Assembly: GCA_963721685.1 (NCBI GenBank)
Contig: CAVRJJ010000005.1
Coordinates: forward strand, 103,943 to 167,942
Reading direction: 5' to 3'
DNA length: 64,000 nucleotides
Origin: an uncultured bacterium
Lineage (GTDB): Bacteria > Patescibacteriota > Saccharimonadia > UBA4664 > SCTI01
Shown here: positions 4,048 to 46,247 of the stretch, piece after piece
How the letters are laid out: each line of letters starts with the position of its first letter
How positions within the stretch are numbered: position 1 is the stretch's first letter
Program-made: the position numbers and the translations under genes
The notes under the pieces: model-generated
Seen by the model: only the letters and a program-made list of their open reading frames with translations
Told to the model about the DNA's origin: nothing
Databases searched by the model: none

Positions 4048-4094
4048 AGGAGTATTGTAACCTGGTACGAATGTTACTTAAATAAGTGCGCCTT

Positions 4095-4127
4095 CCGGCA
4101 CGGACACCGAGAGGGCGTCCGTGCCGT
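4095..4127 (-). terminator. GC-rich hairpin downstream of high-GC gene 4156-4596
   Basis: cggcacggac-accgagaggg-cgtccgtgccg 10-bp stem; weak U-tract. Confidence 0.3.
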
Positions 4128-4155
4128 GATGACGACGACCGGATCGGAAGATCCA

Positions 4156-4596
4156 TCAGGCAGCCGCGGCAACAGCGGTGGGGACAGCGCTGTTGACCGT
4201 CGCGCTCCACTTGGAGTCGTTGCTGGAGATCCGGCGCCTGATGTTCGGCTTCCTCTGGAGGAGGCGCTTACGCAGCGCAACCGTAAGGCAGACGACCACA
4301 CCGTCGTTAACTGCCTTGGGCAGCGCCTTCTCCTTGTCGGCGCCGATGCGGCTGATGTTGAACTGCTCGATGATCGCGAGAACCTCCTCCACCTGGAGGT
4401 CGTTGAGGATGCCCTCGATCACGTCGTCAAGCGTGTCGGTGGTCGCGAGGCGATGCAGCCAGTCCTCAGGCAGATCCCTTGCTCGGTCGAGTTCGACCAA
4501 GATCTGGCTGGCGGCGGCCTGCAGCACCTTGCTGAGCTCCGGCGTCTCGATGTACGTGCTCTCCGCGGTTGCGGGGAGTGCTGTAGCTGTCATGGT
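4156..4596 (-). CDS. hypothetical protein on a high-GC insert between fpg and polA (start MTATALPATAES with AGGAGG RBS)
   Basis: taggagggatcacc-ATG on minus strand at 4596; GC visibly higher than flanks; no recognisable domain. Confidence 0.4.
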   Translation of the reverse strand, partial: TMTATALPATAESTYIETPELSKVLQAAASQILVELDRARDLPEDWLHRLATTDTLDDVIEGILNDLQVEEVLAIIEQFNISRIGADKEKALPKAVNDGVVVCLTVALRKRLLQRKPNIRRRISSNDSKWSATVNSAVPTAVAAAA

Positions 4597-4742
4597 GATC
4601 CCTCCTAGGAATCGTCGTCGAGGTAAAAGCATTGTGCTCCACCCATACTTTATTTATAGTCCTCTCTCCAGCTATGCGCAATGCTTACGCTGGTGATAGT
4701 CACAGAACGAATTGCTTTAAAGATGCTTTTTATTAGAGCTAC

Positions 4743-7475
4743 CTACAAGTCGCCCCAGCTTTTGCCCACTTTGGTATCTACCGCGATTGGCACGCCAAGA
4801 TCATAGACGTTTTCCATGGTGTCGCGCATGAGGTATGATACTTCTTCGGCCTGGCTTTCCTCAGCCTCAACGATCAGTTCGTCATGGATTTGCAGGAGTA
4901 GCATAGCGCCTTCGGGCAGTTTGGGTACCAGGGCAATCATCGCCAGCTTGATGATATCGGCGGCGGTGCCTTGAAGAGGCACATTCACCGCTACCCGTTC
5001 CGCGGCGTTGCGGATTAAAAAGTTATTTGAGTTAATTTCCGGTGAAGGTCGCCTGCGCCCCAGTAAGGTTTCGGTGTACTCATTCTTATGGGCGAACTCT
5101 TTTAATCCTTCAATATATTCTTTTAGGGTTTTGCGGATTTCAAAGTAGCGCTCAATGAACTGCACCGCCTCTTCACGGCTGATACCGGTGGCTACACTTA
5201 ACCCATGCGGACTCATGCCGTACAAGACGCCAAAGTTAATGGTTTTAGCGCTGTAGCGCTGCTCCGGCGTAACCTTATCCAGCGGCACCCCAAACATCTC
5301 GGCGGCGGTTTGCTGATGCAGGTCGATCCCCTTCTTGAAGGTTTCAATCATGCCTTTATCTTTACTGAGGGCGGCGGCAATGCGCAATTCAATTTGCGAA
5401 TAGTCGGCGCTAATGAATACGCGGCCCTTTTGGCGCTACAAAAGCTTTACGGATCTCGCGGCCAATTTCGGTGCGGACCGGAATGTTCTGCAAGTTGGGG
5501 TCGGTAGAATTAAGCCGTCCGGTTTGGGCAATGGTTTGGTTAAAGCGGGTATGGATGCGATTGTTTTTATCAACCAGCTTGGGCAGTGTTTCAACATAGG
5601 TTGATTGCAACTTGGCAAACTCCCGATAGCTGGAAATCATTGGTATGATCGGATGCGCGTCTTGTAGCTTTTCTAGCTCGTGAGCAGCCGTAGAAAGGCC
5701 GCCGGTTTTGCCTTTTTTCACCCCATGCGAAGGAAGCTTCAACTGGTTGAAAAGAATGTCGGACAGTTGGGCCGGAGAAGCGATATTAAACTTCTGTCCG
5801 GCGGCTTCCCAGATTTGCTCTTCCAGCTTTGCCAAATCCTTGGTTAACTTTTCATTAAACTTATTAAGGAAAGCGCTATCAAGTTCAATGCCCGCTATTT
5901 CCATCTGACCCAAGTATTTCAATTAACGGCCACTCGGTGGCTTTGCCGATCCGGTCAAAGCCCTGCTCCTTCAGCTCCGGTTCCATTTTTTGAAACAGCC
6001 GCCAGGTTATATCGGCGTCTTCGGCGGCGTAGGTAGTAGCCTCATCAATGGCGACATCATCAAAGGTAATTTGAGTCCGGCCGCTGCCAATTACCTCAGA
6101 AATCGGGATCATTTCAATGCCAAACTCTTTATACGCCAGGTCGTCCAATGACTGGGAACGGCCCAGCGGATTCAGCAAAAAAGCCGCGATCATGGTGTCA
6201 AACGAAATGGGGCTCGGCGTGATCCCGTGGCGAACAAGAATTTTGTAGTCGTATTTGGCATTGTGCGCGATCTTGCCAATGTCGGGGTCTTCAAAGGCCG
6301 GGCGCAGACGCATCCAGAATTACTTTTTTATTCAACTGTGAACCCTTTTTGTGCGCAACCGGAATGTAGTAGGCTTCAGCCTCTTTTAAGCTGACTGAAA
6401 TGCCAACCAGCTCGGCCTCCATTTCATTCACGCTCGTGGTTTCAGTGTCGAACGCGAACTCCTTGCTAGCTTGAAGGCGTTCAGCGAGTCTTGTTAATGC
6501 CGCTTCGGTCGTAATAGCCGTATAAGATGCGTTTTCCAAGTGCACACGCTGCTTTGCCGGCACCTCTACCCCGGGACCATCAAAGAGGTTGGGAGCTGAT
6601 ACCGTCATCTCTGGAGGCAGCTTGGTGAGCAAGGCCTTAAACTCCATCCGCCGAAACAGTTCCTGAATTTGTTGCTTGTTATACTGGCCAACCTCGGCCG
6701 GCTGTAAGTCCAGGTTGATAGGCGCGTCGCAGACAATGGTGGAAAGCTTTTGGCTTAAATAGGCCATATCTTTGTTCACTTCCAAGCGCTCTTTGAGCTT
6801 GCCTTTCAGCTGATCCAAATTGTTATACACGCCATCCAAACTACCGTAGGTTACGATGAGGTCTTTGGCGGTTTTCTCCCCTACTCCCGCGACGCCGGGA
6901 ATATTGTCGCTGGCATCACCCTTTAAGGCTTTAAGGTCAATGAACTGCTTGGGATCAACCCCGTAGCGTTCTTTGAGTTCAGGTAATCCATAAATAACGG
7001 TATCGGTAAAACCGCGCTTCATAGTGTAGATCTTGGTGTTTTCATCGATCAGCTGCAGTTCATCAAGATCGCCGGTTACAATAATGGTTTCCAAGCCTTG
7101 CTGTTCGGCCTGACGGCCAAGCGTACCAATAATGTCGTCGGCTTCGTAGTTGTCCAGCTCGATCCACGGCAAGCCCAATGCCTCGGTGACCTGGCGGGTG
7201 TAAGGTATTTGGGCATACAGGTCGTCGGGCTGCTTTTTGCGGGTAGCCTTGTATTCCGGGTACATTTCTTTGCGGAACGTATCACTCGATTTGTCCCAGG
7301 TGACAATCGCGTATTTTGGTTTTAGGTCGGATAACACCTTAAGCAGGATCATGGTGAAGCCATAGGTAGCGTTGGTAGGTATGCCCTCCGCGTTGGAAAG
7401 GTGCGGAATGGCGTGGTAGCCGCGATGAAACACAGCACTCCCATCAACCAGGACTAAGCGGTCTTTTTTACTCAT
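4743..7475 (-). CDS. polA: DNA polymerase I (5'-3' exo, 3'-5' exo-like, polymerase domains), split into 4 ORFs by three +1 frameshifts (near 6291-6313, 5885-5922, 5387-5410)
   Basis: Pieces carry MSKKDRLVLVDGSAVFHRGYHA (5' nuclease), KYDYKILVRHG, motif A region ISADYSQIELR (visible only after skipping one nt at ~5392), and RRRPSPEINS...QGTAADIIK...QIHDELIVEAEE motif C. Confidence 0.85.
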
Positions 7476-7502
7476 AGGGATAGTATAGCGTAGGTAAGAT
7501 TA

Positions 7503-11219: not shown

Positions 11220-11688
11220 AATACGAACACGGAATGTGAAAATAAGTGCGTGCTACGACCACCTGCCCCGCGAGGGAGGCAGATGGTCGTGGGCGCGAGT
11301 TGAAGCTGCGGAAGCTTCAGCAGATTGATGTGTTCATGGCCCCGCAGAGGGTCCTGCAGGCATCCGACTGCCCCTCGAGGTGGAAGGGCGTGAACGAAGT
11401 TCTCTCACGACTGCCGCGAGGCGGCCCTGATCGAACCTTCTGGCTGTTGCCGGACTCCTCTTGGAAGGTGCGGAGGAAGAGCCGGTACCTCCCGGTGAAA
11501 CGGAAGGTGGTGCCGGTGGAGACATCAAATGTTCCTCACTCGCGTTTGACATTCATAGCCGTTATGTCGCGATGACAACCGGTCAGAGGAATGTGTTTGG
11601 ATGGGATCCTGCGCAAAAGGAAGCCCTAAGCGCAAGGCTTTCATTTATACCTTTTACCCTTACTTTAAGAAAGCTTTTTATCGGAAAA

Positions 11689-21620: not shown

Positions 21621-21651
21621 GTCTGGTGGAGGCACCGGGAATCGAACCCGG
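21621..21651. repeat. 31-bp direct repeat copy 1 (tRNA 3' end: gtctggtggaggcaccgggaatcgaacccgg)
   Basis: 29/31 identical to 22598-22628; corresponds to T-arm plus acceptor 3' strand of the tRNA-like gene. Confidence 0.8.
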
Positions 21652-21695
21652 CCGACCCGAGTCGCGATCAGGTCACGACGCCAGTCTGTACCCCC
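21624..21695 (-). tRNA. tRNA-like element, degenerate or noncanonical (good acceptor/T-arm/CCA, no canonical D/anticodon arms in 72 nt); probable integration-site remnant
   Basis: Reverse complement GGGGGTA...CCGGGTTCGATTCCCGGTGCCTCCACCA; middle 31 nt cannot be folded into standard D plus anticodon arms; 10-bp complement between flanks tgtctggtgg/ccaccagaca. Confidence 0.35.
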
Positions 21696-21880: not shown

Positions 21881-22393
21881 CTATTCAAACCTAAATAATT
21901 CCACATTCTTGTCCACTTCACTGGAGGCAAAAATCCCGCCGTTCATGGAAAGGTAAACGCCGGGTTTAATGTTAGCAAACGACGCAACTACAAACCCCAG
22001 GTTGAAGCCGGCATCGGACGCGGCGAAACCAGTCAACGGGATCATCGATCCGGTCACAATAATTTTCTTAAGCCCCCCCCCGCTAAATTCTTGATCTAAA
22101 AATTGGGCTGTGTCTCGCATGGTAAAGGTGCCGTGGGTTACGATAATATTCTCGTGCGGGCTGGCATTAATGGCTTTGACAAGCTTCTTCCGATCTTCGT
22201 CGTTAATGTCCCGGCTGTCTTTTTCGATGACACTTTCAGTACTAAAATTGAAATGAGGCTTTATGAGATTGTGAAAATAACTTTCAATTGATGAATCCAG
22301 CTTCATGAGCTTTTTATTAATAGCGTCGTAGGCCGGGTCAAAGAACTCAATAGTTCCACCCATTTTTACAATGTGGACGTGGCTGTTTGGCAC
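21881..22393 (-). CDS. L-asparaginase/glutaminase family N-domain-like protein (170 aa, short) on AT-rich cassette between tRNA fragment repeats
   Basis: KMGGTIE (TGGTIAG-like) and IIVTHGTFTM (hGTDTM-like) motifs. Confidence 0.5.
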   Translation of the reverse strand: MPNSHVHIVKMGGTIEFFDPAYDAINKKLMKLDSSIESYFHNLIKPHFNFSTESVIEKDSRDINDEDRKKLVKAINASPHENIIVTHGTFTMRDTAQFLDQEFSGGGLKKIIVTGSMIPLTGFAASDAGFNLGFVVASFANIKPGVYLSMNGGIFASSEVDKNVELFRFE

Positions 22394-22657: not shown

Positions 22658-23404
22658 GTGAGTAATATTTTCCATCCAACCAGTTTTAACAACATTTCCG
22701 GATTAACCGTTGCCCTAAGCCTGCGTGACCAGGCGCAGCCCGGCGAATTTAGCATGCTGCCAACCAACACCACCATGGATGTTGTCATGGCTAACCGAAA
22801 ACAGTTCGCAGAAACACTTGGCTTTAAGGAAACGAGTCTTATACGAGCTAATCAAGACCATACCAATCTAGTGGAGGAAGTTACCGACGCCTATCCTACA
22901 ACGGATCCGCCCCAGGCCGACGCCTTAATTTCTAAGACTCCTGGATGGCTCATCGGCGTCACTATTGCCGACTGTGTCGGGCTGGCACTGTATGATCCGG
23001 TGAATTCCGCCCTTGGCATCGTCCATTCGGGCCGCAAAGGGACGATTGGTCGTATCGCTTCCAACACGATCCACAAAATGCAAGAATCGTACGGTACTGA
23101 TCCTGCAGAACTCCTCGTGTATCTTTCACCCTGCCCAAACCCCGACGAATATCCGATTGACCTCGATACCGCCAAAGCTTGCGACCCCCGCTACCTATCC
23201 CCTACTTCCAACCCCAATGAGGTTTATTATGACAACCGCCTAGCGGTTTATGACCAACTAATTGAAGAAGGGGTTGCTCCTGAACATATTGAAATCGATG
23301 AACGCTCAACTATAAGTAACCCCCAGCTCCACTCTTATCGTCGTGACGGGGATAAAGCCGGGCGAATGATGCTCGCGATCGGTTTAAAAAATGAAAAGTT
23401 TTAA
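22658..23404 (+). CDS. pgeF: YfiH/PgeF family (DUF152) purine nucleoside phosphorylase/peptidoglycan editing factor
   Basis: TIADCVGLALYDP and IVHSGRKG motifs. Confidence 0.7.
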   Translation: MSNIFHPTSFNNISGLTVALSLRDQAQPGEFSMLPTNTTMDVVMANRKQFAETLGFKETSLIRANQDHTNLVEEVTDAYPTTDPPQADALISKTPGWLIGVTIADCVGLALYDPVNSALGIVHSGRKGTIGRIASNTIHKMQESYGTDPAELLVYLSPCPNPDEYPIDLDTAKACDPRYLSPTSNPNEVYYDNRLAVYDQLIEEGVAPEHIEIDERSTISNPQLHSYRRDGDKAGRMMLAIGLKNEKF

Positions 23405-23439
23405 TAATTGCTGGTAAACGGACCAGAACACAAACACGT

Positions 23440-23466
23440 GGGGGCGGAGCTCGTCGCTCCGCCCCC
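23440..23466 (+). terminator. GC hairpin gggggcggagc-tcgtc-gctccgccccc after pgeF
   Basis: 11-bp perfect stem 36 nt after stop; no strong T-tract. Confidence 0.45.
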
Positions 23467-23549
23467 AGTGTCACTCCAACCCACGCGGGCCTACGTGGGT
23501 TATGACTGGCGTGAATCGCCGGTCAGTTTGGTTTAGGCGCGGCAGGCGC

Positions 23550-23783
23550 CTAGGTGATCAGCGTGTCGCCACCGAGGTCGGGCGCGTCGCCGAGGGCGTC
23601 GTCGATGATGTCGTCGTCGGCCGCGTTCGAGGTGACCCGGAGGAAGCCGCCGTCGGGCGTGATGGGCAAGCCGGCCTCGAGGTGATGGCAGTGCGCGCCG
23701 CGCGTGTCGCGGTCGATCTCGTGCGCGATGCCGTCGCCGAGGGTGAGGCCATAGTCCTTCGGCGGTGCCAGAATTCCCAGCAT
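23550..23783 (-). CDS. small acidic hypothetical protein (77 aa, MLGILAPPKDYGL...) on high-GC cassette; ORF-track 151-aa version over-extended
   Basis: aggagcaggatc-ATG RBS at 23783; conserved 5' element lies upstream at 23891-23987. Confidence 0.4.
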   Translation of the reverse strand: MLGILAPPKDYGLTLGDGIAHEIDRDTRGAHCHHLEAGLPITPDGGFLRVTSNAADDDIIDDALGDAPDLGGDTLIT

Positions 23784-23890
23784 GATCCTGCTCCTCTTCT
23801 TGCGATGAATAGCAACGCTTAACGATCCCGTCAGCTTATCAGATGCTCCGATAGCTTCATTGGTCGTTTGGTGGTCGATCCTCGAATACG

Positions 23891-23987
23891 TTGCTGTAAC
23901 CCGAGCAAAAAATAACCATATAAAATGGTGAACTTTTGCTCGGGTTACGACGTTGTGTTCTGGTCTGTCAAAGAAATAATCGTAATT
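23891..23987 (-). promoter_or_regulatory. cassette 5' element copy A: TTTCTTTGACAGACCAGAAC plus 15-bp-stem hairpin GTAACCCGAGCAAAA/TTTTGCTCGGGTTAC
   Basis: Read directly; same architecture as 27659-27756 and 29313-29423. Confidence 0.6.
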
Positions 23988-26739: not shown

Positions 26740-27602
26740 TCGACATAGGTTGCCGCCCCATCATCAAGATCCATGATCTTGATTTGGGCCCGCTGCTGTA
26801 CGGGGCCCCGCCCGTAGGTGTCCAGCGCCGGGTCATAGGCGTTGGGGTAGTGGTAGTAGATCGGGAACGGCGTCGAACCTTGGAGTTGGAAATCCTGGTA
26901 GTAGCCGTCGCCAGAGTGAATCCGAATCCGCCGACCCACACCATTGTCTGTGTTGGCCGTCCGCGGGACGTTGATGATCAACTCTGCCCGAATGAGCTTG
27001 TTCGAAGTACCCGTCGGGTGAGTCAATCCACTAGTCGTCGATTCCGTGTGGCTCCTTGTTGAAAACGAGGAAGACACAAGCTTGTCTTCCTTTGCCACGT
27101 AATACCCGCCTTGGAAGGAATCGATTACAGTCGATCTCGTATACGGAGACGTCGGTACAGGAGCCAAAGCCGAGGTTTGGCTCCCCCCGTATTGCGAAAC
27201 GTATGGAGCGCTGGCATTTGCGCGTGCGCGCGACTCAGCAGTGGAACTTCCTGGAGCTCCAAGCATGCCTTGTCCCGCTGCTTCTACTGCGCGACGGGCT
27301 GTGTCACCCCGAATTGACTGCTTTGAAGGGCAAGCCGATCCAGTTGTTTTGATGACGGTGATGACCCACTTGGTGCCGTCCCACTGAGCACGCAGGTAGA
27401 CATAAACGTCGCATTGCTGCCCGCTCGAGCAGAAGATGAGCTTCGTGGTTGGCGTAGCCGGATTTGCCGAGACAATGCAGTAGTGCGGCAAGCCCGTCAC
27501 CGGGTCCGGAATGTGGAAGGCGGCACTCGCTGGCGACGGCGCAACTGCCATTGCCACGGACACTACGATGGCGGCTGCCAACGTAGTAAATAGTCTTTGC
27601 AT
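26313..27602 (-). CDS. secreted Cys-rich hypothetical protein, paralog A (signal peptide MQRLFTTLAAAIVVSVAMAVAPSPASA)
   Basis: 429 aa; C-terminal 190 aa identical to paralog B; 6 Cys in last 90 aa. Confidence 0.6.
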   Translation of the reverse strand: MQRLFTTLAAAIVVSVAMAVAPSPASAAFHIPDPVTGLPHYCIVSANPATPTTKLIFCSSGQQCDVYVYLRAQWDGTKWVITVIKTTGSACPSKQSIRGDTARRAVEAAGQGMLGAPGSSTAESRARANASAPYVSQYGGSQTSALAPVPTSPYTRSTVIDSFQGGYYVAKEDKLVSSSFSTRSHTESTTSGLTHPTGTSNKLIRAELIINVPRTANTDNGVGRRIRIHSGDGYYQDFQLQGSTPFPIYYHYPNAYDPALDTYGRGPVQQRAQIKIMDLDDGAATYVDYYYDAQPINSPWPVAGASTPVSQVQPDYNDYGTRGECDPDWNPCWSPSPTAVFFNIAAKIDHPAMPTCLEAQDAVVQAWGVSNATNVPYGACKRVDWQRWKITTLDCVYYVEKKPVYVNGVIEYRIVGQRYSKWSDPQPGI

Positions 27603-27658
27603 CTGATGCTCCTCACATGTAGCTGGGCAGTGAAAGGCAATTACCTCGTTCTCGAGCT

Positions 27659-27756
27659 CACTGCTGTAACCCGAGAAAAAGCTTGCAATAGATTATCTAC
27701 AAACTCATTTTCGGGTTACAGCAGTGTTCTGATCTGTCAAAGAAAATGCCGTAATC
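27659..27756 (-). promoter_or_regulatory. cassette 5' element copy C (19-bp stem cactgctgtaacccga.aaa / ttttcgggttacagcagtg, then GTTCTGATCTGTCAAAGAAA)
   Basis: 57 nt upstream of paralog A start. Confidence 0.6.
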
Positions 27757-27928
27757 AAACCTAATAGGAGCAACTACGACAAGTGTAGGGATTCTAATGC
27801 TTACTGTTGCACTTCGTCAATAGCGCCAATTTAAATAATTGCATTTGAAACGGATCAGAAGACTTTTAACTTGAGTTGTTAGTCGACATGGTGGCGGGCC
27901 GAAGCCCGCCACCGGTCGAGTTGAAGGG

Positions 27929-29254
27929 CTAGATGCCCGGTTGCGGGTCACTCCACTTGCTGTATCGCTGGCCGACGATGCGGTACTCGATGACTCCGTT
28001 CACATACACCGGCTTCTTCTCGACGTAGTAGACGCAGTCCAGCGTCGTGATCTTCCAGCGCTGCCAGTCGACGCGCTTGCAGGCCCCGTAAGGCACATTC
28101 GTGGCGTTTGAAACGCCCCATGCCTGGACGACTGCATCTTGAGCTTCAAGGCATGTCGGCATCGCGGGGTGATCGATCTTGGCCGCGATGTTGAAGAACA
28201 CCGCAGTCGGACTCGGAGACCAACAGGGGTTCCAGTCTGGGTCGCACTCGCCCCTTGTTCCGTAGTCGTTGTAGTCAGGTTGCACCTGGCTGACCGGCGT
28301 GCTCGCACCAGCCACTGGCCACGGCGAGTTAATCGGTTGCGCGTCGTAGTAGTAGAACGCGTAGGACACGCTCCTGTCGTCGAGATCCTCAATCTTCAGA
28401 ACCGCATGCTGCTGTACGGGGCCCCGCCCGTAGGTGTCCAGCGCCGGGTCATAGGCGTTGGGGTAGTGGTAGTAGATCGGGAACGGCGTGGTGGTCGATA
28501 TGAACATGTCCACGTGCGAGCCGTCGCCGGCGGAGATCCTGATGCGCCGGCCGTTGATGTTGGTACGCGGCACATTGACTACGAGCCCCGCCTCCATCAC
28601 CTTGTTCGAAGTACCCGTCGGCTGCTTGAGCACAGCGGTCTCGGCGTGATTTCTTGGCGTGATCCCGCCCGTTGATCCGCCCTTTGCCCGGATGGTTCCA
28701 CCGTCGAAACTTTCGATAGCGGTGAACGGCCGTGCATATGGCGCCGGGGGTGTCTGGCTGGTCGACCATGTCGGATTTGAAGCGGTCAGATATGGGGCCG
28801 TCCCCTTCGCCCTTGCAGACGCCGCCGGCCCCCAGCCTGGCGGCGGAGGATTCGCTCCACCGGGATCACCCAACATCCCCTTGCCAGCCTGTTCGACGGC
28901 TCGCTTTCCCTTGGCCGCGCGTTGCGCTCGCCTGGCCGGGGTCGCACCTACCGCCGTCGATTCCGTCACGACCCACTTGCCGTTGATGAACTCAGCGCGC
29001 ATCCAGATGGAGACGCTGCTGCGCGTCCCGTCGACGCAGTGCACAACGGCTACGCGCGGCCCTTCGCCCCGATCGATGACGACGCAGGTCAACTCCTCTC
29101 CCGTTTCCGGGTCGGTGATGATGTAGGCCTCAATCCCTTCGCCACCGGGAATGAAGATGGGGCCGTTCGCGCTTGCTGGTGACGGCGAGAACGCCATGGC
29201 CAGCATCGCGGCAACGGTTACGCATAGAGCCATCCGACGTTTTCTCATTTTCAT
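27929..29254 (-). CDS. secreted Cys-rich hypothetical protein, paralog B (true start MKMRKRRMALCVTVAAMLAMAF at 29254; track ORF over-extended to 29449)
   Basis: gggagcattctc-ATG RBS; signal peptide; conserved blocks TGTSNK..VNVPRT, TPFPIYYHYPNAYDPALDTYGRGPVQQ shared with A. Confidence 0.6.
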   Translation of the reverse strand: MKMRKRRMALCVTVAAMLAMAFSPSPASANGPIFIPGGEGIEAYIITDPETGEELTCVVIDRGEGPRVAVVHCVDGTRSSVSIWMRAEFINGKWVVTESTAVGATPARRAQRAAKGKRAVEQAGKGMLGDPGGANPPPPGWGPAASARAKGTAPYLTASNPTWSTSQTPPAPYARPFTAIESFDGGTIRAKGGSTGGITPRNHAETAVLKQPTGTSNKVMEAGLVVNVPRTNINGRRIRISAGDGSHVDMFISTTTPFPIYYHYPNAYDPALDTYGRGPVQQHAVLKIEDLDDRSVSYAFYYYDAQPINSPWPVAGASTPVSQVQPDYNDYGTRGECDPDWNPCWSPSPTAVFFNIAAKIDHPAMPTCLEAQDAVVQAWGVSNATNVPYGACKRVDWQRWKITTLDCVYYVEKKPVYVNGVIEYRIVGQRYSKWSDPQPGI

Positions 29255-29312
29255 GAGAATGCTCCCTTGGTTGCTGGTAACAGTGTATGGTGAATCTTTA
29301 TCGACCTCAGGT

Positions 29313-29423
29313 CCACTGCGTAACCCGAGCAAAAAACCACCAAAAAAGTATGGTGGACTTGTGCCCCGGGTTACGCCCGGTAAATTTATGTGTCCTAACC
29401 TGTCAAAGAAACTAGTCGTAATT
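29313..29423 (-). promoter_or_regulatory. cassette 5' element copy D (imperfect hairpin gcgtaacccgagcaaaaaaccacca / tggtggacttgtgccccgggttacgc, then CCTGTCAAAGAAA)
   Basis: Upstream of paralog B start. Confidence 0.5.
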
Positions 29424-29558
29424 AGAGAAAAAGCTCTAATTGCGGCCACATGGTATTAGATTCTATAATGAATTTTTAATTTGTCAATATATGTTCAGCC
29501 AGCAGAAAGAGCCTACTATAGCTCTTTCTGCTCAATATCAATTATCCTGTTCTGAGCT

Positions 29559-31646: not shown

Positions 31647-32284
31647 TTAGGAGGATTTAACCCGTTCAAGAATAAACTTAATGACGTCTTCAACATTCCG
31701 GTGGGTGGTGTCGATTACCGTGGCATCTTCAGCTTGCTTGAAGGTTCCAACTTTTTTGGCGGCGTCGGCGGCATCCCGTTCAAGCAAAGAGGTGACGGTT
31801 TCATGGCCGCGGCCACCGGCGTTTACCCGCCGCACCCGCTCTTCAGGGTCGCACGTGAAATGAAACTTGTAGGGCGTATCGGGAAATACCCGGGTAGTTA
31901 TATCGCGCCCTTCCATAACTACACCATTTTCATTGGCGTAGTTACGCTGTAACGATAAAATTTGGTCGCGCACCTGCCGGATGGCTGGACACCACGGCAA
32001 CCTGGTTGTTGACATCTTCCAGATGAAGCTTGCCGCGGACATCTTGCCCGTTGACGGTTACTACGTTACCGCCGTCAAACTTAAACTTGATGGCTTTGGC
32101 GATTTCCAAATTTCCCTTGGCATCCTGGGGGTCAATGCCGGCCTGTAAACAAGCAAATGTAATGCCGCGGTAGAGTTCACCGGTGTTTAAATGCGGAAGA
32201 TTAAGTTTTTCGGCAACACCCCGAGCTACGGTGGAAGTTCCGGTTCCGGCTCCGCCGTCTATCGCGATAATCAGTCTTCGTCAT
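31647..32284 (-). CDS. cmk: cytidylate kinase, broken into three frames by two +1 insertions (near 32272 and ~32000)
   Basis: ATG 32284 overlaps Mur-ligase stop (ATGA); middle frame LIIAIDGGAGTGTSTVARGVAEKLNLPHLNTGELYRG; C-frame EGRDITTRVFPDTPYKFHFTCDPEERVRRV. Confidence 0.7.
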
Positions 32285-33913: not shown

Positions 33914-33987
33914 GCTGATATTTTATTTTCTAAAACTTAATTTTGAGTTAAATGAGGCTTGTTTATCTCTAAGGCAAGATAAGAGAC

Positions 33988-34129
33988 AAATCTGCATCAA
34001 ATCTGCATCAAATCTGCATCAAATCTGCATCAAATCTGCATCAAATCTGCATCAAATCTGCATCAAATCTGCATCAAATCTGCATCAAATCTGCATCAAA
34101 TCTGCATCAAATCTGCATCAAATCTGCAT
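33988..34129. repeat. 11-bp tandem repeat (ATCTGCATCAA)x~13, perfect
   Basis: Read directly; lies in intergenic region before divergent gene 34240(+); ORF 33882-34133 is an artefact of it. Confidence 0.95.
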
Positions 34130-34239
34130 TTAAGTTTAGTGCATCCCAAAAAATACTGTAAGAAAGTAAGCGCAGCCGTGTTGACTTAAATTAAGGTCTT
34201 TGACACCATGGTAACCATAGGCATTATGTAGGGGGAATT

Positions 34240-41044: not shown

Positions 41045-41134
41045 TGGCGGAGAGGGTGGGATTCGAACCCACGATACCGTTGCCGGTATACCGCTTTTCG
41101 AGAGCGGCGCCTTCAACCACTCGGCCACCTCTCC
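41045..41134 (-). tRNA. tRNA-Ser (anticodon CGA)
   Basis: Manual fold: anticodon loop CTCGAAA, long variable arm, T-loop GGTTCGAATCC, CCA. Confidence 0.85.
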
Positions 41135-41209: not shown

Positions 41210-42271
41210 CTAATGCTTGGACGACTCCACGTGCTGGCGAATCATCTCAACAGCCTCAGGCGCGGGTTCCCCCGTGACAAAATCAATTTTAGAATACGGT
41301 ATTTGAACCATATAACCCCTCAATGGGCGTTTAATTTGGCGTGAATAGCTATTTACCTTAGCCCTGAACTGGTTAAGGGATTTCTCAGTCTGCGTACTAA
41401 AATGGCTAGCTTGGCCGTTCTCATCGAGCGTCACACCGGGAAATCCAATGGTGTCGGTTTCATAAACCGCCATTTCACCATCTCGCGTGCCTTTTACTTG
41501 CACAACCTCATCATCGGCCCCCCAAAGATCAATTGCATTAAAAGCATCCTCTTTTGGATGAGACCAGTGTGGATTACCTCCTATTTGAGCAAACGCTTTA
41601 TAGGTGGCGACTTGACTGACAACCGAGCGGCGCAGGGCTGGCATGGTTCGAACATTGCCGGTATGCCCAGCCAGCCGTTCAGCGGTGCTCCAGAACTTTT
41701 CTAAATATTCTTTATCGCCAGATTGAAGCTCAACGAAATGTGAGATAAGGAACTGGAACTGAGTAATCTCTTGTACCAGCCGCTTGGCTTCGTCTCGATC
41801 GCCGCGCTCCCTAGCGTCATATAATTGGGCGTTAGCAGCAAAAAAATCTTGAAGTCCAAACATTACTTCCACCGCCTCAAGCTGATCGGGGTAGTCCATC
41901 TCGTAAAGTCCCTTCTGTCTAGCGGTTTCGGCCAGGTCTCCGGCGGCGAGCACCTCAAACAGCTCCTTTTGACGCTCCCAGGCGGCCTGAAGCTGCTCGG
42001 AAGGAGAGTGCTTACGAGCTAAAACCTCAGCGCGAGCTCTTTTATCGCCATAGTTGAAACCAAATTTTTCCTCCCACCATTCCTCGAGGGCCTGTCTTGC
42101 GACTGCACTCTCCTCATCAGATAAGGGAAGACCTTCCATTCGGCGATAAAGAAGCTCTTGGACCCTACTATCAAACAAAGCCATATCTTGGATCAACTCA
42201 ACACGCTCATAGGCTTTTGTTGACTGAGGTTCACGTTCGTCTTCCGTAAAAATCGGGGTTTGAAGCTCCAT
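41210..42271 (-). CDS. hypothetical protein (353 aa)
   Basis: ORF with coding-like composition; no motif recognised. Confidence 0.35.
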   Translation of the reverse strand: MELQTPIFTEDEREPQSTKAYERVELIQDMALFDSRVQELLYRRMEGLPLSDEESAVARQALEEWWEEKFGFNYGDKRARAEVLARKHSPSEQLQAAWERQKELFEVLAAGDLAETARQKGLYEMDYPDQLEAVEVMFGLQDFFAANAQLYDARERGDRDEAKRLVQEITQFQFLISHFVELQSGDKEYLEKFWSTAERLAGHTGNVRTMPALRRSVVSQVATYKAFAQIGGNPHWSHPKEDAFNAIDLWGADDEVVQVKGTRDGEMAVYETDTIGFPGVTLDENGQASHFSTQTEKSLNQFRAKVNSYSRQIKRPLRGYMVQIPYSKIDFVTGEPAPEAVEMIRQHVESSKH

Positions 42272-42385
42272 GATCTGATAATATCATGATGTAGAGAAGG
42301 TTCAGCACGATGGCTGAAACTTAAACCGCTTTATTGCCATACAGCTGATCACTTTAGGCAAATAGCTTGCTTGATTATTGCGTGA

Positions 42386-42411
42386 GAACGCCCCCTCCAG
42401 GGCGTTCTCAA
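42386..42411 (-). terminator. hairpin gagaacgccc-cctccag-ggcgttctc downstream of 42453-43064
   Basis: 10-bp stem; weak U-tract. Confidence 0.3.
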
Positions 42412-42452
42412 TCGATTGACGGAGGTCGCCTGGAGGAGACGCTTGGATCGTG

Positions 42453-43064
42453 CTAGCAGCCGAGTGGCTTCAGTGCCGCTTCCGGCAGCGTATCCACGAG
42501 GTCTGCGAGGTGGCCCAGGTTGACCGGCTCCCTCAGCTGGTTGAAAGGACAGATCAGGACGAGCCCGATCTCGGTCTGCCGGTAGATGCACTCGTAGCAG
42601 ACCAGCCCATGGAACATGGCCAGCATCGCTGCGAGTTGCAGCATGGTGCCCACGTTGAAATCGGAGGTCGCGTACCTGCAGTTGTCCGTGAGTCCACCGA
42701 CGGTGACCAGCATCTCGTTGAGATCGAGGAACCCGCCGGAAACGTGCCTGTAGAGCAGCATGCTCCCGGAGCGAGGAACGCAGACGATCGCGTCCCCGAC
42801 CATCGGAGGCGAGACCACGGCGCGCGGCACGGTGTAGTCAGCTTGAACTCGCACCCGTGGCTGATGCCGCCGGGTGTGGTTCCTCATCAGCGTCAGGATG
42901 CCGACGGAGCCGAGCAAGGCGATCGTGGAGCCGAGGGGCATCCACTTCGGACCCTCGACCCAGCCACTGAGGTAGGCGGAGGTAATGATCGCGGACAAAC
43001 CTACGGCGATCAAAAAGAACGGCCACATGGGGCCGGTGTACGAAACCCTACTTGAAATCGACAT
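42453..43064 (-). CDS. high-GC membrane protein with C-terminal Cys-rich region, hypothetical (start MSISSRVSY, GGAGGA RBS)
   Basis: RBS plus ATG at 43064; 2 TM helices. Confidence 0.4.
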   Translation of the reverse strand: MSISSRVSYTGPMWPFFLIAVGLSAIITSAYLSGWVEGPKWMPLGSTIALLGSVGILTLMRNHTRRHQPRVRVQADYTVPRAVVSPPMVGDAIVCVPRSGSMLLYRHVSGGFLDLNEMLVTVGGLTDNCRYATSDFNVGTMLQLAAMLAMFHGLVCYECIYRQTEIGLVLICPFNQLREPVNLGHLADLVDTLPEAALKPLGC

Positions 43065-43180
43065 TGATGCTATCCTCCAGGTTGGGGTAGGCCCTATCGC
43101 TAGGGGGCTGACATCAGTCAACACATTGCAGATAATAATACCATATTTATACTAATATAGCAAATTTTGATATTTGAAAT

Positions 43181-43245
43181 AAGCATAAGTCCTATGGTGC
43201 AGCACACTGGCTGAGGTTAGAACCATTTTATTATCGTATGGCGTA
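43181..43245. repeat. tRNA-Arg-derived att-like repeat R1 (aagcataagtcctatggtgcagcacactggctgaggttagaacc...)
   Basis: Shares aagcataag..ctatggtgc with the 3' flank/end of tRNA-Arg (46234-46253) and a degenerate T-arm. Confidence 0.8.
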
Positions 43246-43258
43246 GGTTGGAGCCCAA

Positions 43259-43684
43259 CTAAGACTTTTTTATCCTGAGCGGGTTAACTAATTTGAGCCC
43301 CTCAATATGCTGAAAATCATCCTTATTTGCAGTCCATAGCGCAACATCATGCTCAAGAACCGTAGCCGCTATGATCGAGTCACCTAAGCTCATGCGTCTG
43401 GCCTGGCGGAGTTTAATTGCTCGATCAACGATTGCGTCAGTAAGCGCAAGGCTATACGACTCCCCAAAGAGAGCATCAAGCAGTAGCAGCTCATTGGCAG
43501 GAATTCGGGCGTAGCCAAGCGCTTCAATTTTTGTGATGCTGGCGTGAGCTATGTCAGTTTCTGCAATAACATGGCGATCGAGCGTACCGTTTGAAAGATA
43601 AATAAATATATTGGTGTCGAGAATGATCACCAGAATTACTCTCTTCCTGGTAGAGAACGATCCGCACGATTCGTGCGCTGCCAT
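43259..43684 (-). CDS. vapC: PIN-domain toxin VapC
   Basis: ILDTNIFIYL...TANKDDF PIN acidic residues. Confidence 0.75.
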   Translation of the reverse strand: MAAHESCGSFSTRKRVILVIILDTNIFIYLSNGTLDRHVIAETDIAHASITKIEALGYARIPANELLLLDALFGESYSLALTDAIVDRAIKLRQARRMSLGDSIIAATVLEHDVALWTANKDDFQHIEGLKLVNPLRIKKS

Positions 43685-43899
43685 GCAGCCGGGTCATGTA
43701 TGTCTGTATAAGCTCCAATTTCTTGCAGTTGCTTCAGTAGTTCTTGTATCCGCTTTCGATCCTGTATTGATTCCGAAGTTGGTAATGCAATAATGGCTTT
43801 TTGCCCTAACTCCAACTGCGCGTCCTCTACGTACTTTTTCGGTACGCGAAGGGCATAGGAATTACCAGTTTTAATAACGGTTGCAGTGTAATTACGCAT
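43636..43899 (-). CDS. vapB: AbrB/MazE (SpoVT-AbrB) antitoxin VapB
   Basis: MRNYTATVIKTGNSYALRVPKKYV swapped-hairpin motif; overlaps vapC. Confidence 0.7.
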   Translation of the reverse strand: MRNYTATVIKTGNSYALRVPKKYVEDAQLELGQKAIIALPTSESIQDRKRIQELLKQLQEIGAYTDIHDPAAWQRTNRADRSLPGRE

Positions 43900-43965
43900 T
43901 GTAACTACAATTATACTTACAACGCTATAAGCGTCAAGTCACATTTTGTACTGATAATGGAAAAT

Positions 43966-44020
43966 AAGCATAAGCCCTATGGTGCAGCACGTTGGCTGAA
44001 GTTAGAACCATTTTATGTGG
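43966..44020. repeat. att-like repeat R2
   Basis: aagcataagccctatggtgcagcacgttggctgaagttagaaccattttat. Confidence 0.8.
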
Positions 44021-44051
44021 TTAACCTGATGGGTGTTGACGAAATTGATGG

Positions 44052-44273
44052 TTACGCCCAAAACTCTTGGGCACCAAGGTTCGACTGCTGTATAATATTC
44101 CTCAAAGTACCGGGTAAGATATCCCGACTGTGGAATGGAACCACAACGATAGCTTTAGTATCTGGGCGATGATAAATGCGGTGACTGCCGGTTTGGCGTT
44201 TCAGCAGAAATCCTTTACCAAGCAGCACTTTCTCGAGTTCTTTTGGCGTGTACGAGCGGCTCTGCTTCGGCAT
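44052..44273 (-). CDS. hicA: HicA mRNA-interferase toxin
   Basis: GSHRIYHRPD...VVVPFHSRDILPGTLRNIIQQ. Confidence 0.75.
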   Translation of the reverse strand: MPKQSRSYTPKELEKVLLGKGFLLKRQTGSHRIYHRPDTKAIVVVPFHSRDILPGTLRNIIQQSNLGAQEFWA

Positions 44274-44286
44274 ACTTGAGTACTAC

Positions 44287-44553
44287 TTACAGCCTAGCCG
44301 GAGAGCCAAAAGCAATTTTCCTGGTCGTGATGTAGTAGTCATCTGCATCTGGCCGAGGTAATGGTTCCCCAAGTTCAACCAGCGTTTCCAGGTAAAGTTT
44401 GATGGCTTGCTCCATGTTGGTGACAGCTGTATCAATTGTTGCACCAAAATCGGACAAACCTAAAGAGGGTGCATAGGCTACATAGACAGTTTTGCCATCC
44501 TGCTGCTCTTGCTCGACGATAATTCTATAGTTAGATACTGTAGTTTTCATATG
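44287..44553 (-). CDS. hicB: HicB antitoxin (start MKTTVSNYRII; track ORF over-extended into repeat R3)
   Basis: UPF0150-like: YAPSLGLSDFGATIDTAVTNMEQAIKLYLETL. Confidence 0.65.
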   Translation of the reverse strand, partial: HMKTTVSNYRIIVEQEQQDGKTVYVAYAPSLGLSDFGATIDTAVTNMEQAIKLYLETLVELGEPLPRPDADDYYITTRKIAFGSPARL

Positions 44554-44617
44554 ACCAATTATATCATGTTCACCGACGCAATTATCTGTTGAAGTTGGCA
44601 GTCTCCACAGAAAGAAT

Positions 44618-44675
44618 AAGCATAAGCTTAATGGTGCGACACACTGGCTGCGGTTAGAACCTTTTATTATCGTAT
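44618..44675. repeat. att-like repeat R3
   Basis: aagcataagcttaatggtgcgacacactggctgcggttagaaccttttattatcgtatagc. Confidence 0.8.
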
Positions 44676-44818
44676 AGCAAATCATATCAGGCAAATGGGA
44701 TTGGAAGAAATTAGAACTTTCAATGGTGGAAGCCTATAGATTTTCGAGCTTTTGCCTAGACGTGCAGGCGCCCCGCTGGGCGAGGTGCCTGCGGGGCGCT
44801 AGTTGGACCTCTTGCTCT

Positions 44819-45355
44819 TTATGCGAACCCAGGTTCGGGAACGACGCTCGAGGAGCCGGGACGGCCGGTGACACGCATCTCGCGCATCCCCTTCCGTGCG
44901 CCCTCAAGCCACAGCCACTCGTTCGTTCCACCGTGGACGCAGATCAGGTGCCCGTGCTCGGGACATCCGAGGAGGTTGAGGGACTCGTGATCGATCCAGT
45001 CAACGTTCTCCATGCAGGTCGGGCAGACGATCTGGAGGTTGACCCACCCCTGCTTCCTGGTTGGGTTGTAGGTGACCTCAACCAGGTTGCCGGGACCGTG
45101 AACCTGCATGTAGCCCCGGGGAAGGGTCGTGGTGTAGCCACGCACCTCCCAGGGAGCCAGACTCGGGTACTTGGGCTTGTCAATGCCCTTGACCTCGAGA
45201 TGGATGTCACCTCCGCATGCCAGGGGGAAGCAGAGGTTGCGCAAGCCATGCGCTCCCGCCGGATGCTGATCGAAGAGGTTCAGGACGAAGTCCCACTTGG
45301 ACGGTCCCTTGCCGGTTTCCAGCGAAATGGGCAGAATGTAAGCCAATTGACTCAC
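44819..45355 (-). CDS. high-GC hypothetical protein with Cys/His clusters (CPTC...CPEHGHLIC)
   Basis: ORF only; start uncertain. Confidence 0.3.
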   Translation of the reverse strand: MSQLAYILPISLETGKGPSKWDFVLNLFDQHPAGAHGLRNLCFPLACGGDIHLEVKGIDKPKYPSLAPWEVRGYTTTLPRGYMQVHGPGNLVEVTYNPTRKQGWVNLQIVCPTCMENVDWIDHESLNLLGCPEHGHLICVHGGTNEWLWLEGARKGMREMRVTGRPGSSSVVPEPGFA

Positions 45356-45486
45356 CCTTCTATGGTTCGTACCTCGAGAGTGCGAGGAAACACGTTGCGC
45401 CGAAGCACCACCTAAGCCAGTTGACCCAGGAATAGGGAATATTATATCATGTATGTCTTAATAAGTCCAGGATTAAGATTGTAAAA

Positions 45487-45548
45487 AAGCATAAGCCCTA
45501 TGGTGCAGCACGCTGGCTGAGGTTAGAAGCATTTTAGTGTCGTATAGT
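45487..45548. repeat. att-like repeat R4
   Basis: aagcataagccctatggtgcagcacgctggctgaggttagaagcattttagtgtcgtatag. Confidence 0.8.
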
Positions 45549-45718
45549 GGTGCGGTAGCGGCAAATGGATAGTCCAGCCCGGATGAAAAGAACCTAAACG
45601 CGTTAAAGCCCCACTGGGCTTACATGTGTAGCTCCCAATGGGGCTGTTTGGACAGGCAGGTGGCGTAATATGCCATTTGAACTCGCCAACTGCGAGCCTG
45701 CCTTACTGAAGACGACGG

Positions 45719-46105
45719 TTACTTCCGTGCCCCGATGTGGTGCAGACGCTCTTTCTTGAGCTCCTGGATGCCCAAGTCGGTGTCCCAGATCCTGCTCAGC
45801 AGGGTGTGAAGGACGCTGTCGGCGAAGGCCACGAAGGAGTCCCACGACATATCGTCGTAGGGGGTCTTCACGGTCCAGGTGATGCCCTCTGCCTCCAGCT
45901 GAATCAGAACCATCATCGCAGCGCCATCGGTGGGAGTGATCTCCTCGATGGCCTTGTGGATGGCCTTGTCGAGGTCGTCCACGTTCCATGCTTCGGGGGT
46001 GGCGTGATCGGCGTTGTACCACGCGAAGGCGCGGATGCCGAGGAGTTCGAGAGTCTGGGACTCCCTGAGCTTGTCAATGGGGTCGGGATCGCATGTGAGC
46101 GACAT
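45719..46105 (-). CDS. high-GC hypothetical protein (start MSLTCDPDPIDKL, GGAG RBS)
   Basis: RBS plus ATG 46105. Confidence 0.35.
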   Translation of the reverse strand: MSLTCDPDPIDKLRESQTLELLGIRAFAWYNADHATPEAWNVDDLDKAIHKAIEEITPTDGAAMMVLIQLEAEGITWTVKTPYDDMSWDSFVAFADSVLHTLLSRIWDTDLGIQELKKERLHHIGARK

Positions 46106-46247
46106 CTGATCTCCAGAGGTTCGAAAGGGTTGCTTGACCTTCAGCGTCAACAATAATAACATATAGAGCATGATAAGTCAATGGCAGATTATGTGCGACG
46201 GTCATCGTCGAGGTATGAATAGGATGAAAGAATAAGCATAAGTGCTA

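Follow-up and report, generated by a model that had tools for sequence, protein, structure and literature searches.

GC-rich single-gene cassettes of foreign composition beside tRNA-Arg and PGI in a Saccharibacteria-like genome

Introduction

In Prochlorococcus, tycheposons integrate repeatedly at one site, where new elements push the older ones inwards and scattered partial tRNAs are left behind as remnants (bioRxiv 10.1101/2020.12.28.424599). Here we describe small, GC-rich gene cassettes found in a stretch of 64,000 nt (contig CAVRJJ010000005.1 of assembly GCA_963721685.1, positions 103,943–167,942; the whole stretch is called the window in the following). Seven GC-rich open reading frames (ORFs) are distributed over three places, i.e., a tandem array that starts at a tRNA-Arg gene, a group of repeatedly framed units around the gene for PGI, and a single ORF between polA and fpg. 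We compare them with tycheposons and other tRNA-linked islands, with integron arrays and clusters of attC sites lacking integron integrases (CALINs), with classical genomic islands and with invertons.

Like tycheposons and related tRNA-linked islands, the window array starts at a tRNA, its direct repeats resemble the tRNA 3′ region and both composition and cargo vary from unit to unit; in another contig, L086, a similar island begins at the 3′ end of a transfer-messenger RNA (tmRNA). Unlike such islands, the units measure 0.65–0.9 kb, contain one gene or one toxin–antitoxin pair each and have promoter-like sites of their own. Moreover, in contrast to tycheposons, the scanned ORFs of the array and its surroundings include neither a tyrosine recombinase nor a replication module, and of the tRNA itself only about 5 nt recur in the repeat. 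With integron arrays and CALINs the window array shares co-oriented single-ORF cassettes, a conserved repeat of 60–100 nt, many orphans, interspersed toxin–antitoxin cassettes and a heterogeneous cassette GC content. However, no IntI, attI or Pc is present at the head of the array, and the cassettes carry their own promoter-like sites. An identity of the array repeat with an integron attC was rejected, as there was no attC-like palindrome, no covariation and no GTTRRRY core visible in the alignment. We hence conclude that the window arrays behave like tRNA-linked islands and integron arrays, but belong to neither class as defined, because no recombinase was found among the scanned ORFs, attC structure is absent, the repeated tRNA part is marginal and each cassette brings a promoter-like site of its own.

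The genomes of Patescibacteria are tiny, and few classical mobile elements are known from them. Of interest are the route by which new genes enter such genomes and a possible uptake of genes from the bacteria on which Patescibacteria live. The window presents a concrete and recurring format of gene gain, i.e., single-gene cassettes with a common foreign signature, and the same format is found in other Saccharibacteria-like contigs. Gene flow in episymbionts can be approached through the repeat sequences, through a leader motif and through the protein families T2 and A/B (see below). The lineage-specific proteins, some of which have signal-peptide-like or hydrophobic N-termini, are candidates for host interaction.

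GC-rich ORFs differ from the backbone in composition

The GC content of the whole window is 51.8%. Five segments flagged in a preliminary description of this DNA reach 0.616 (4060–4640), 0.571 (23500–24000), 0.577 (25240–29450), 0.599 (42300–43100) and 0.566 (44700–46200); pooled, they have a GC content of 0.580 compared with 0.510 for the remainder. The segments are therefore GC-rich as described, but at 57–62% in a backbone of 51%, and not at about 60% in a backbone of about 49%. The GC excess is a coding signal, since inside each segment a single codon phase has a GC content of 0.80–0.90 (stretches 4081–4650, 23431–23880, 26131–27000, 27781–29280, 42391–43110, 44761–45360 and 45571–46170). 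From the phase pattern, with GC at the first codon position above that at the second and GC at the third position (GC3) highest, the true strand and frame were assigned at every site.

Several overlapping ORFs of at least 100 aa occur on both strands at each site, as expected from high GC content; to this extent only, the earlier observation of ORFs in all six frames was confirmed. The ORFs 4178–4696(+) and 44723–45415(+) were rejected as shadow ORFs expected in GC-rich DNA, despite being among the longest. For cassette T2, 44723–45415(+) lies on the wrong strand, and the codon-phase analysis favours 44819–45355(−). A further high-GC stretch at 91–600 was not taken as an island, since it codes for a Pro/Ala-rich tail that belongs to a protein of the DHH family, as judged from its sequence.

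We measured the seven GC-rich ORFs with curated starts and used 35 genes as backbone reference. All seven ORFs lie on the minus strand, with GC3 values of 0.84 for I1 (4156–4593), 0.92 for D (23550–23783), 0.68 for B (26313–27602), 0.76 for A (27929–29254), 0.83 for T5 (42453–43064), 0.78 for T2 (44819–45355) and 0.85 for T1 (45719–46105). Backbone GC3 had a mean of 0.554 with a standard deviation of 0.047 (n = 35 genes, range 0.48–0.65), corresponding to z-scores of 2.7–7.8 for the island ORFs. Pooled GC3 was 0.772 in the islands and 0.560 in the backbone (Fisher p = 1.4e-63). Codon choice differed likewise between islands and backbone, i.e., 0.78 versus 0.30 for Ile-ATC, 0.91 versus 0.32 for Phe-TTC, 0.93 versus 0.47 for Lys-AAG and 0.41 versus 0.11 for CTC. 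The GC-normalized dinucleotide signature placed the islands at a distance (δ* × 1000, given as δ* in the following) of 212 from the backbone, whereas a null drawn from backbone samples matched in size gave 30 ± 10 with a maximum of 57. Moreover, every island was nearer to the other islands (δ* 40–124) than to the backbone (178–296).

GC3, the Fisher test and δ* thus each reveal the compositional deviation by which horizontally acquired genomic islands are recognized. The comparison of GC and codon usage named in the preliminary description returned a significant difference from the backbone, and its notion of compositionally foreign insertions in a lower-GC backbone holds for GC3, codon usage and dinucleotide signature. 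As in classical, partly ameliorated genomic islands, GC, GC3, codon usage and dinucleotides deviate, a tRNA serves as site and the cargo is accessory or hypothetical. In contrast to these, the window insertions are extremely small and modular, and they have conserved non-coding frames across unrelated cargos and genomes. The mobility gene by which genomic islands are also defined was not found, i.e., Pfam scans of most window ORFs gave no recombinase (the two largest ORFs, 58528–62268 and 62268–63998, are among the unscanned ones).

The cassettes are 0.6–1.7 kb long and comprise a promoter-like site, a Shine–Dalgarno sequence, one ORF or toxin–antitoxin pair, and a GC-rich hairpin. As self-contained units bounded by conserved repeats they deserve the name of cassettes that had been proposed for them. 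The GC-rich hairpin said to end each insert was found downstream of 7/7 island ORFs, in most cases with the T-tract missing. Strong consensus ribosome-binding sites (RBSs) are present as described, but are not specific for the inserts: the Shine–Dalgarno sequence AGGAG/GGAGG is also used by atpD, groEL, pgi and other backbone genes, and is hence no marker of inserts.

A cassette array adjoining tRNA-Arg

On the minus strand after tRNA-Arg (46248–46324, minus strand), five units follow each other head-to-tail in the same orientation, i.e., T1, T2, HicB-like plus HicA, AbrB/MazE-like plus PIN, and T5. They are set apart by a direct repeat of 59–105 nt (GGTTCTAACCTCAGCCAGTGTGCTGCACCATAGGGCTTATGCTT) that resembles the tRNA 3′ end and its flank. 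The combination of a tRNA or tmRNA gene with direct repeats, typical of insertion, was found for this array at 42.3–46.3 kb (tRNA-Arg and four to five repeats), and not for I1 or the units in the PGI region.

The tRNA heads the array, and its last bases together with the 3′ flank (46225–46252, GCACCATAGCACTTATGCTTATTC) match the repeat core. T1 (45719–46105), a 128-aa orphan ORF (P0007), is the first cassette past the tRNA and is followed by two GC-rich hairpins (~45609–45703). Next come repeat R4 (45478–45536, with similarity over 45441–45545) and a promoter-like site at 45469–45441, and then T2 (44819–45355), a 178-aa ORF with a zinc-ribbon-like CPxC...C motif. Repeat R3 (44609–44667) precedes the low-GC unit 44052–44551 with the HicB-like gene (44287–44551, GC3 0.40) and HicA (44052–44273, GC3 0.51). 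Behind repeat R2 (43957–44015) lies a promoter-like site scoring 11/12 at 43937–43910, and then a second low-GC unit (43259–43899) that encodes an AbrB/MazE-like antitoxin (43636–43899, GC3 0.38) and a PIN toxin (43259–43684, GC3 0.45). Repeat R1 (43172–43230, similarity over 43135–43239) leads to T5 (42453–43064), a 203-aa ORF with hydrophobic, membrane-like N-terminal stretches and a GC-rich hairpin after it (~42387–42443). At the junction with the backbone a degenerate distal copy of the repeat is found (R0, 42296–42340, GGTTTAAGTTTCAGCCATCGTGCTGAACC). All these repeats and units are on the minus strand.

The 44-nt repeat core gave three matches at up to three mismatches compared with 0 expected. 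The 3′ part of the repeat, GCACCATAGGGCTTATGCTTATT, aligns with the tRNA end and 3′ flank GCACCATAGCACTTATGCTTATT, and the arrangement GCACCATAG..CTTATGCTTATT is common to the repeat and the tRNA end and flank. Only about 5 nt of it lie inside the tRNA; the remainder of the repeat consists of tRNA 3′ flank and about 25 nt of non-tRNA sequence. CTTATGCTTATT occurs in five copies in the array, counting the tRNA flank, and in seven matches overall versus 0.42 expected. An extra exact copy was located at 50648–50659(−), at the start of a pilin gene of a type IV secretion system (T4SS). The repeat is conserved in sequence and not in structure (consensus fold −5.2 kcal/mol, 0/11 pairs covarying), and a protein-binding or recombination site hence fits better than an integron attC. 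Promoter-like sites are enriched in the array region, with 14 compared with 3.5 ± 2.0 in shuffles, and several stand directly behind repeats.

The toxins HicA (E = 3.4e-19) and PIN (E = 1.2e-6) were both matched above the Pfam cut-offs. The antitoxin matches were weak, i.e., 25.4 bits for the HicB-like protein at a cut-off of 27 bits and E = 0.023 for the MazE/AbrB-like protein. The low-GC cassettes thus hold toxin and antitoxin domains in adjacent small genes, as is characteristic for HicAB and VapBC. Because cassettes with a GC3 of 0.78–0.85 are interspersed with toxin–antitoxin cassettes with a GC3 of 0.38–0.51, the array units must differ in origin.

At the distal end of the array, a 353-aa ORF (41210–42271, minus strand) has backbone composition and no match in Pfam, PHROGs or PADLOC; nothing supported it as a recombinase candidate. 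Beyond tRNA-Arg, a 184-aa ORF gave only weak, sub-threshold matches to transmembrane domains, and no integrase was found there. Two tRNA-Ser genes in opposite orientation (41045–41134(−) and 47037–47126(+); 92 nt, 79% complementary) bracket the whole array together with tRNA-Arg. A further 72-nt tRNA-Arg(GCG) at 21624–21695(−), called by ARAGORN and not by Rfam, is unrelated to the tRNA-Arg at 46248–46324.

Framed units around PGI

In the preliminary description, 25240–29450 was treated as one insert. It consists instead of three tandem units with low-GC spacers, A, B and C, which occupy the gap between GroEL and PGI; a fourth unit, D, lies on the far side of PGI, toward a Cu-oxidase_4 gene. 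The four units have a frame in common, in which a promoter-like site, the L motif, a leader hairpin, the RBS with the cargo, a GC-rich hairpin and the R motif follow in this order. The promoter-like sites score 10–11 of 12. The L motif TTCTTTGACAGATCAGAACAC (21 nt) occurs four times compared with 0 expected, and the R motif is its inverted copy followed by CAGCAATTATT. GCAATTATT has four minus-strand occurrences, which are located at the unit ends. In the leader hairpin, compensatory changes were found at 11 of the 23 pairs. A covariance model of this leader recovered exactly the four window copies and one more in contig L086, ahead of an A/B homologue, and no copies beyond those in the 13 sources searched.

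All four units are on the minus strand. Unit A (27834–29487) has its promoter-like site at 29487–29460, the L motif at 29390–29410, the leader hairpin and the R motif at 27834–27861. Its cargo (27929–29254) is a 441-aa ORF (P0002), a paralogue of B with a signal-peptide-like N-terminus, followed by a GC-rich hairpin at 27890–27913. Unit B (26209–27820) has the promoter-like site at 27820–27791, the L motif at 27724–27744, a leader hairpin with 27-nt arms at 27659–27726 and the R motif at 26209–26236; a 429-aa ORF (26313–27602), also with a signal-peptide-like N-terminus, and a GC-rich hairpin at 26274–26297 stand in between. The small proteins reported earlier thus do not include A and B. The 300 nt at 26264–26563 and 27880–28179, spanning the 3′ end of ORFs A and B and the hairpin, are 100% identical, which points to a recent duplication or gene conversion.

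Unit C (25223–26142) has the promoter-like site at 26142–26114 and the L motif at 26055–26075, together with leader hairpin, GC-rich hairpin and R motif. Its GC-rich cargo region (25260–25930) contains no clean ORF, and codon periodicity suggests a frameshifted ORF remnant on the plus strand. The unit is bracketed by a perfect 18-bp inverted repeat TGACACATCAGAACATAG at 25238–25255(+) and 26053–26070(−), which could be an inversion or recombination site; a 13-bp version is present at unit D. Unit D (23403–24048) has the promoter-like site at 24048–24021, the L motif at 23955–23975 and the leader hairpin within 23885–23980. It carries a 77-aa acidic orphan ORF (23550–23783), GC-rich hairpins at ~23439–23500, and the R motif with GCAATTATT at 23403–23435. 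In an independent Logan assembly, unit D was found in the same context between PGI and Cu-oxidase, with a 2-aa deletion.

Units C and D resemble invertons in their flanking inverted L/R motifs of 13–18 bp, and the promoter outside the L motif and signal-peptide-like cargo are further likenesses. Unlike for invertons, no invertase was found among the scanned window ORFs. The leader hairpin stands beside the L motif in all units, and there is hence no sign of a whole-unit flip. The GroEL–PGI gap in contig L002, from a Saccharibacteria metagenome-assembled genome (MAG), contains three unrelated genes for hypothetical proteins, which identifies this gap as a variable hot spot.

Islet I1 and a candidate eighth islet

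I1 (4156–4593, minus strand) is a 145-aa orphan ORF between polA and fpg with a GC content of 0.635 and AGGAGG 7 nt before the ATG. Its GC-rich hairpin at 4097–4125 (minus strand, GGCACGGACgccctctcggtGTCCGTGCC) has no T-tract. A Tat signal was rejected for I1, as RRRFLGG lies before the AGGAGG–ATG start and the annotated protein (P0004) begins with MTATALP. A candidate eighth islet was noticed at 11246–11575 (plus strand), between dnaG and a HhH-GPD glycosylase gene, with a GC content of 0.61–0.64 and an ORF GC3 of 0.72. ACGCACTTATTT at its border resembles GCGCACTTATTT after I1, with a motif count that was not significant; the motif GCRCACTTATTT at two islet borders was rejected, also as not significant.

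Cargo proteins and relatives in other contigs

None of the seven island proteins had a convincing match in Pfam, PHROGs or PADLOC, with a marginal DUF465 match of T1 as the only signal. For homologues, 1.84 billion representative proteins from public genomes and metagenomes were searched exhaustively with phmmer. Nothing but their own entries was found for I1, D and T1, and nothing at all for T5, whereas T2 had about 16 representative relatives at 28–51% identity and the N-terminal and middle parts of A/B had six distant relatives. The island proteins gave nothing by tblastn against INPHARED phages and PLSDB plasmids; protein and DNA-pattern scans of IMG/VR and two scans of JGI metagenomes were likewise without result.

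Proteins of the T2 family have about 165 aa and a zinc-ribbon-like motif. The AlphaFold model is confident, with a predicted local distance difference test score (pLDDT) of 81, and had no fold match in PDB or BFVD. In the A/B proteins, a signal-peptide-like N-terminus and an N-terminal beta domain are joined by a Ser/Thr/Pro-rich linker to a domain that is PKD-like by eye; in the window, A and B carry an additional private C-terminal domain of ~130 aa. An assignment as PKD is not supported: the likeness (GDG...YxYPNAYD...GxGPV...YDAQP) was seen by eye only and came with no Pfam match and no confident fold. The AlphaFold model of B has a mean pLDDT of 51.5 and is unreliable.

T2 homologues occur in three further contigs. 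L091 (48% GC) encodes an AtpD with 78% identity to the window AtpD; a single T2 homologue with a GC3 of 0.71 stands there between genes with a GC3 of 0.47–0.53. L090 (51% GC) contains four consecutive genes with a GC3 of 0.73–0.83 beside a backbone with 0.44–0.62; these GC-rich genes are spaced by L090's own 50-nt repeat (CCCCGAG...CAGGGGTYGYAAGACC) at 379–428, 892–941 and 1695–1744. L090 and L091 share a conserved 5′ untranslated region at their T2 homologues. In L081 (56.5% GC), a T2 homologue with a GC3 of 0.69 adjoins a gene with a GC3 of 0.42. A hammerhead type III-like motif was noticed directly after the T2 homologue of L091, at 2324–2378(+) (36.8 bits, E = 1e-4, below gathering score); no equivalent was found in the window.

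A/B homologues were found in more diverse settings. In L086 (53% GC), positions 1–27 are a tmRNA 3′ end (E = 7e-6), and three GC-richer genes (60–2700) follow directly, including an A/B homologue with the leader motif of the window units. L084/L085 (45% GC) carry an A/B homologue at a native GC3 of 0.42, and in L082/L083 and L092 (67% GC) the homologues reside in uniformly high-GC DNA. The A/B family is the only one with relatives on high-GC DNA. Neighbouring ORFs of L082 matched no Pfam family; beside the A/B homologues of the 67% GC contigs are ORFs in which we read a likeness to a Cas4-type nuclease and to the C-terminal part of a DNA methylase. In dinucleotide signature, the pooled window islands almost coincide with the GC-rich cluster of the unrelated contig L090 (δ* 36); they are far from both backbones and have a δ* of 157 to the single Actinomycetota MAG compared.

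Origin of the GC-rich cassettes

There is good support for a foreign origin of the cassettes from one high-GC gene pool, i.e., their composition, their sharp boundaries, their hot-spot location and the recurrence of this format in further Saccharibacteria-like contigs. The closeness of the islands to each other and to the L090 cluster speaks for one common source pool, with a GC content of ~60–67%, rather than for several donors. On balance, we think it probable that the cassettes were horizontally acquired from such a distinct pool and came to cluster at the tRNA-Arg flank, by serial integration, and around PGI, in a frame for expression and exchange.

Several observations weigh against this. 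No integrase, transposase or relaxase was found in the Pfam-scanned window ORFs (several, including the two largest, 58528–62268 and 62268–63998, were unscanned). Mobility was not observed, and neither an empty site nor an alternative cargo at the same site was recovered. No donor was found, with 4/7 proteins being complete orphans among the representative proteins searched. The flanks of I1 have no repeat in common with the other units. For the array, the label of a partial tRNA att site is weak because only about 5 nt of tRNA are contained in the repeat; promoters are carried or preceded by the repeat, which could therefore be a duplicated regulatory region. Scans of JGI metagenomes and IMG/VR gave no match to the array repeat, and the assembly contains frameshifts, with polA in four pieces.

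The preliminary description had suggested an actinobacterial donor, i.e., the host of an episymbiont. An episymbiont is a reasonable guess in view of the Saccharibacteria-like backbone, synteny with the MAG ELA467, the T4SS pilin array and FemAB genes, and cultivated Saccharibacteria live on Actinobacteria. We nevertheless regard a direct, recent transfer of host genes from an actinobacterial chromosome as unlikely. The codon style of the islands (CTC/CTG, GTC, ATC, AAG, GAG and TTC; TA dinucleotide 0.59) is like that of high-GC Actinobacteria, and the 3′ hairpins without T-tract are reminiscent of the ‘I-shaped’ terminators without T-tract described in Actinobacteria. However, I1, D, T1 and T5 lack homologues in a protein set that should include sequenced Actinobacteria, and the islands are far closer to the L090 cluster than to the Actinomycetota MAG in δ* (36 versus 157). 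All T2 homologues found lie in contexts that are low-GC or mosaic, and one of these (L091) is clearly related to the window; and conserved low-GC cassette flanks are common to Saccharibacteria-like contigs. The A/B family does occur on two 67% GC contigs, but these have no taxonomic assignment and the L082 neighbours are without Pfam family. Orphan status and lineage-restricted relatives thus make sequenced Actinobacteria an unlikely source of a simple, recent transfer, and together with the missing phage, plasmid, PHROGs and PADLOC matches they leave the proposed donor without confirmation. The converse outcome, homologues confined to the same lineage, which had been named as a refutation of foreign cassettes, applies in part, as T2 was found only as GC-elevated genes in L081, L090 and L091.

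Less likely still, the cassettes might be leftovers or ‘morons’ of a phage, plasmid or mobile element of higher GC content that circulates among Saccharibacteria, the GC content being the signature of the element. This would agree with the dinucleotide signature shared with the L090 cluster, and orphan small proteins, toxin–antitoxin modules and tRNA- or tmRNA-adjacent sites are typical of integrated elements; the hammerhead-like motif in L091 and, by our own reading, the nuclease- and methylase-like ORFs beside the 67% GC homologues point the same way. Against it stand the lack of structural, replication or integrase genes among the scanned ORFs and of matches in INPHARED, IMG/VR, PLSDB and PHROGs, and phages usually have a GC content equal to or lower than that of their hosts. 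Native genes, with GC3 raised locally by GC-biased gene conversion at recombination hot spots or by codon selection, are a very improbable source. Although the 300-nt identity of A and B shows ongoing gene conversion, T2 homologues are GC-elevated in several related genomes and the flanks are native-like and conserved, the dinucleotide signature differs after GC normalization (δ* 212), I1, D, T1 and T5, being orphans in single copy, lack a conversion partner, and boundaries at RBS and 3′ hairpin are sharp. Moreover, the adjoining toxin–antitoxin cassettes of the same array are GC-poor, and the A/B homologue in L084 is at its native low GC3. An assembly or binning artefact, i.e., chimeric joins with reads of high-GC organisms, is hardly credible. 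Indel-type frameshifts do exist in this assembly (polA in four parts, cmk and asparaginase truncated), but each GC-rich ORF is precisely framed by a leader and a trailer of low GC content, which are conserved and present in four or five copies, unit D recurs in its gene context in the independent Logan assembly, and the same mosaic pattern is seen in the unrelated contigs L081, L086, L090 and L091.

Possible mechanism of cassette acquisition

If the cassettes were horizontally acquired from a high-GC pool, the tRNA-Arg array most likely grew as circular cassettes integrated one after another, in a site-specific manner, at an att site beside the tRNA. The recombinase would then be encoded elsewhere in the genome, since none was found among the scanned window ORFs, and the toxin–antitoxin cassettes might stabilize the array. 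The frame in the PGI region would act as a portable platform for expression and exchange; through homologous or site-specific recombination between its conserved arms, units could be duplicated, as for A and B, or could exchange their cargo. The cargo, i.e., proteins with signal-peptide-like or hydrophobic N-termini, a zinc-ribbon-like protein and small acidic proteins, presumably serves dealings with host cells or mobile elements.

Tentatively, and with a rather low likelihood, these features may be generalized to a dedicated, as yet undescribed cassette capture-and-expression system of Saccharibacteria, in which a conserved platform of sigma-70-like promoter, L motif, leader hairpin, cargo and R motif, and att-type repeats at tRNA and tmRNA genes would allow single ORFs from a high-GC pool to be installed, duplicated and swapped between genomes, with the recombinase located elsewhere. 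As such a pool, the actinobacterial host, phages of this host or an unknown mobile element come into consideration. More speculatively, host-like codon usage and a T4SS 2.3 kb from the array hint that the cargo could be exchanged with, or act in, the host cell.

The backbone genome

Housekeeping genes of the backbone include the atp operon, GroEL, PGI, a class I aminoacyl-tRNA synthetase, TsaD, two FemAB, a Mur ligase, sigma-70, DnaG, Fpg, and a T4SS with pilin array. Six window genes (aminoacyl-tRNA synthetase–TsaD–FemAB–FemAB–GroEL–PGI) are collinear with the 15.5-kb contig L002 of the MAG ‘Candidatus Saccharibacteria’ ELA467. From this collinearity and the AtpD identity of 78% to the metagenomic contig L091, we assign the window to a divergent Saccharibacteria-like (Patescibacteria) genome. 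GroEL had 50–55% identity to the best GTDB species-set sequences among the matches listed.

The T4SS locus (48621–52056(−) and 52109–64000(+)) starts 2.3 kb from the tRNA-Arg array, and its pilin array adjoins PrgI and a VirB4/TraG-like ATPase. Six or seven pilin paralogues stand in tandem, at least four of them confirmed by Pfam T4SS_pilin. Three frameshifts divide polA (4743–7475, minus strand) into four consecutive ORFs. For cmk (31647–32042) the profile match covers the C-terminal half only, and for asparaginase (21881–22393) the N-terminal domain only. The split polA and the partial cmk and asparaginase reflect either assembly indel errors or gene decay; with frameshifts in the assembly, fine ORF details, above all those of unit C, may be unreliable.

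At 33976–34140, an 11-nt unit CAAATCTGCAT is repeated in ~13 perfect tandem copies in intergenic DNA of 34% GC. The gene starts at 36505, 37595 and 41210 have a −10-like box ~7 nt before the ATG and no Shine–Dalgarno sequence, and the mRNAs of such backbone genes may be leaderless.

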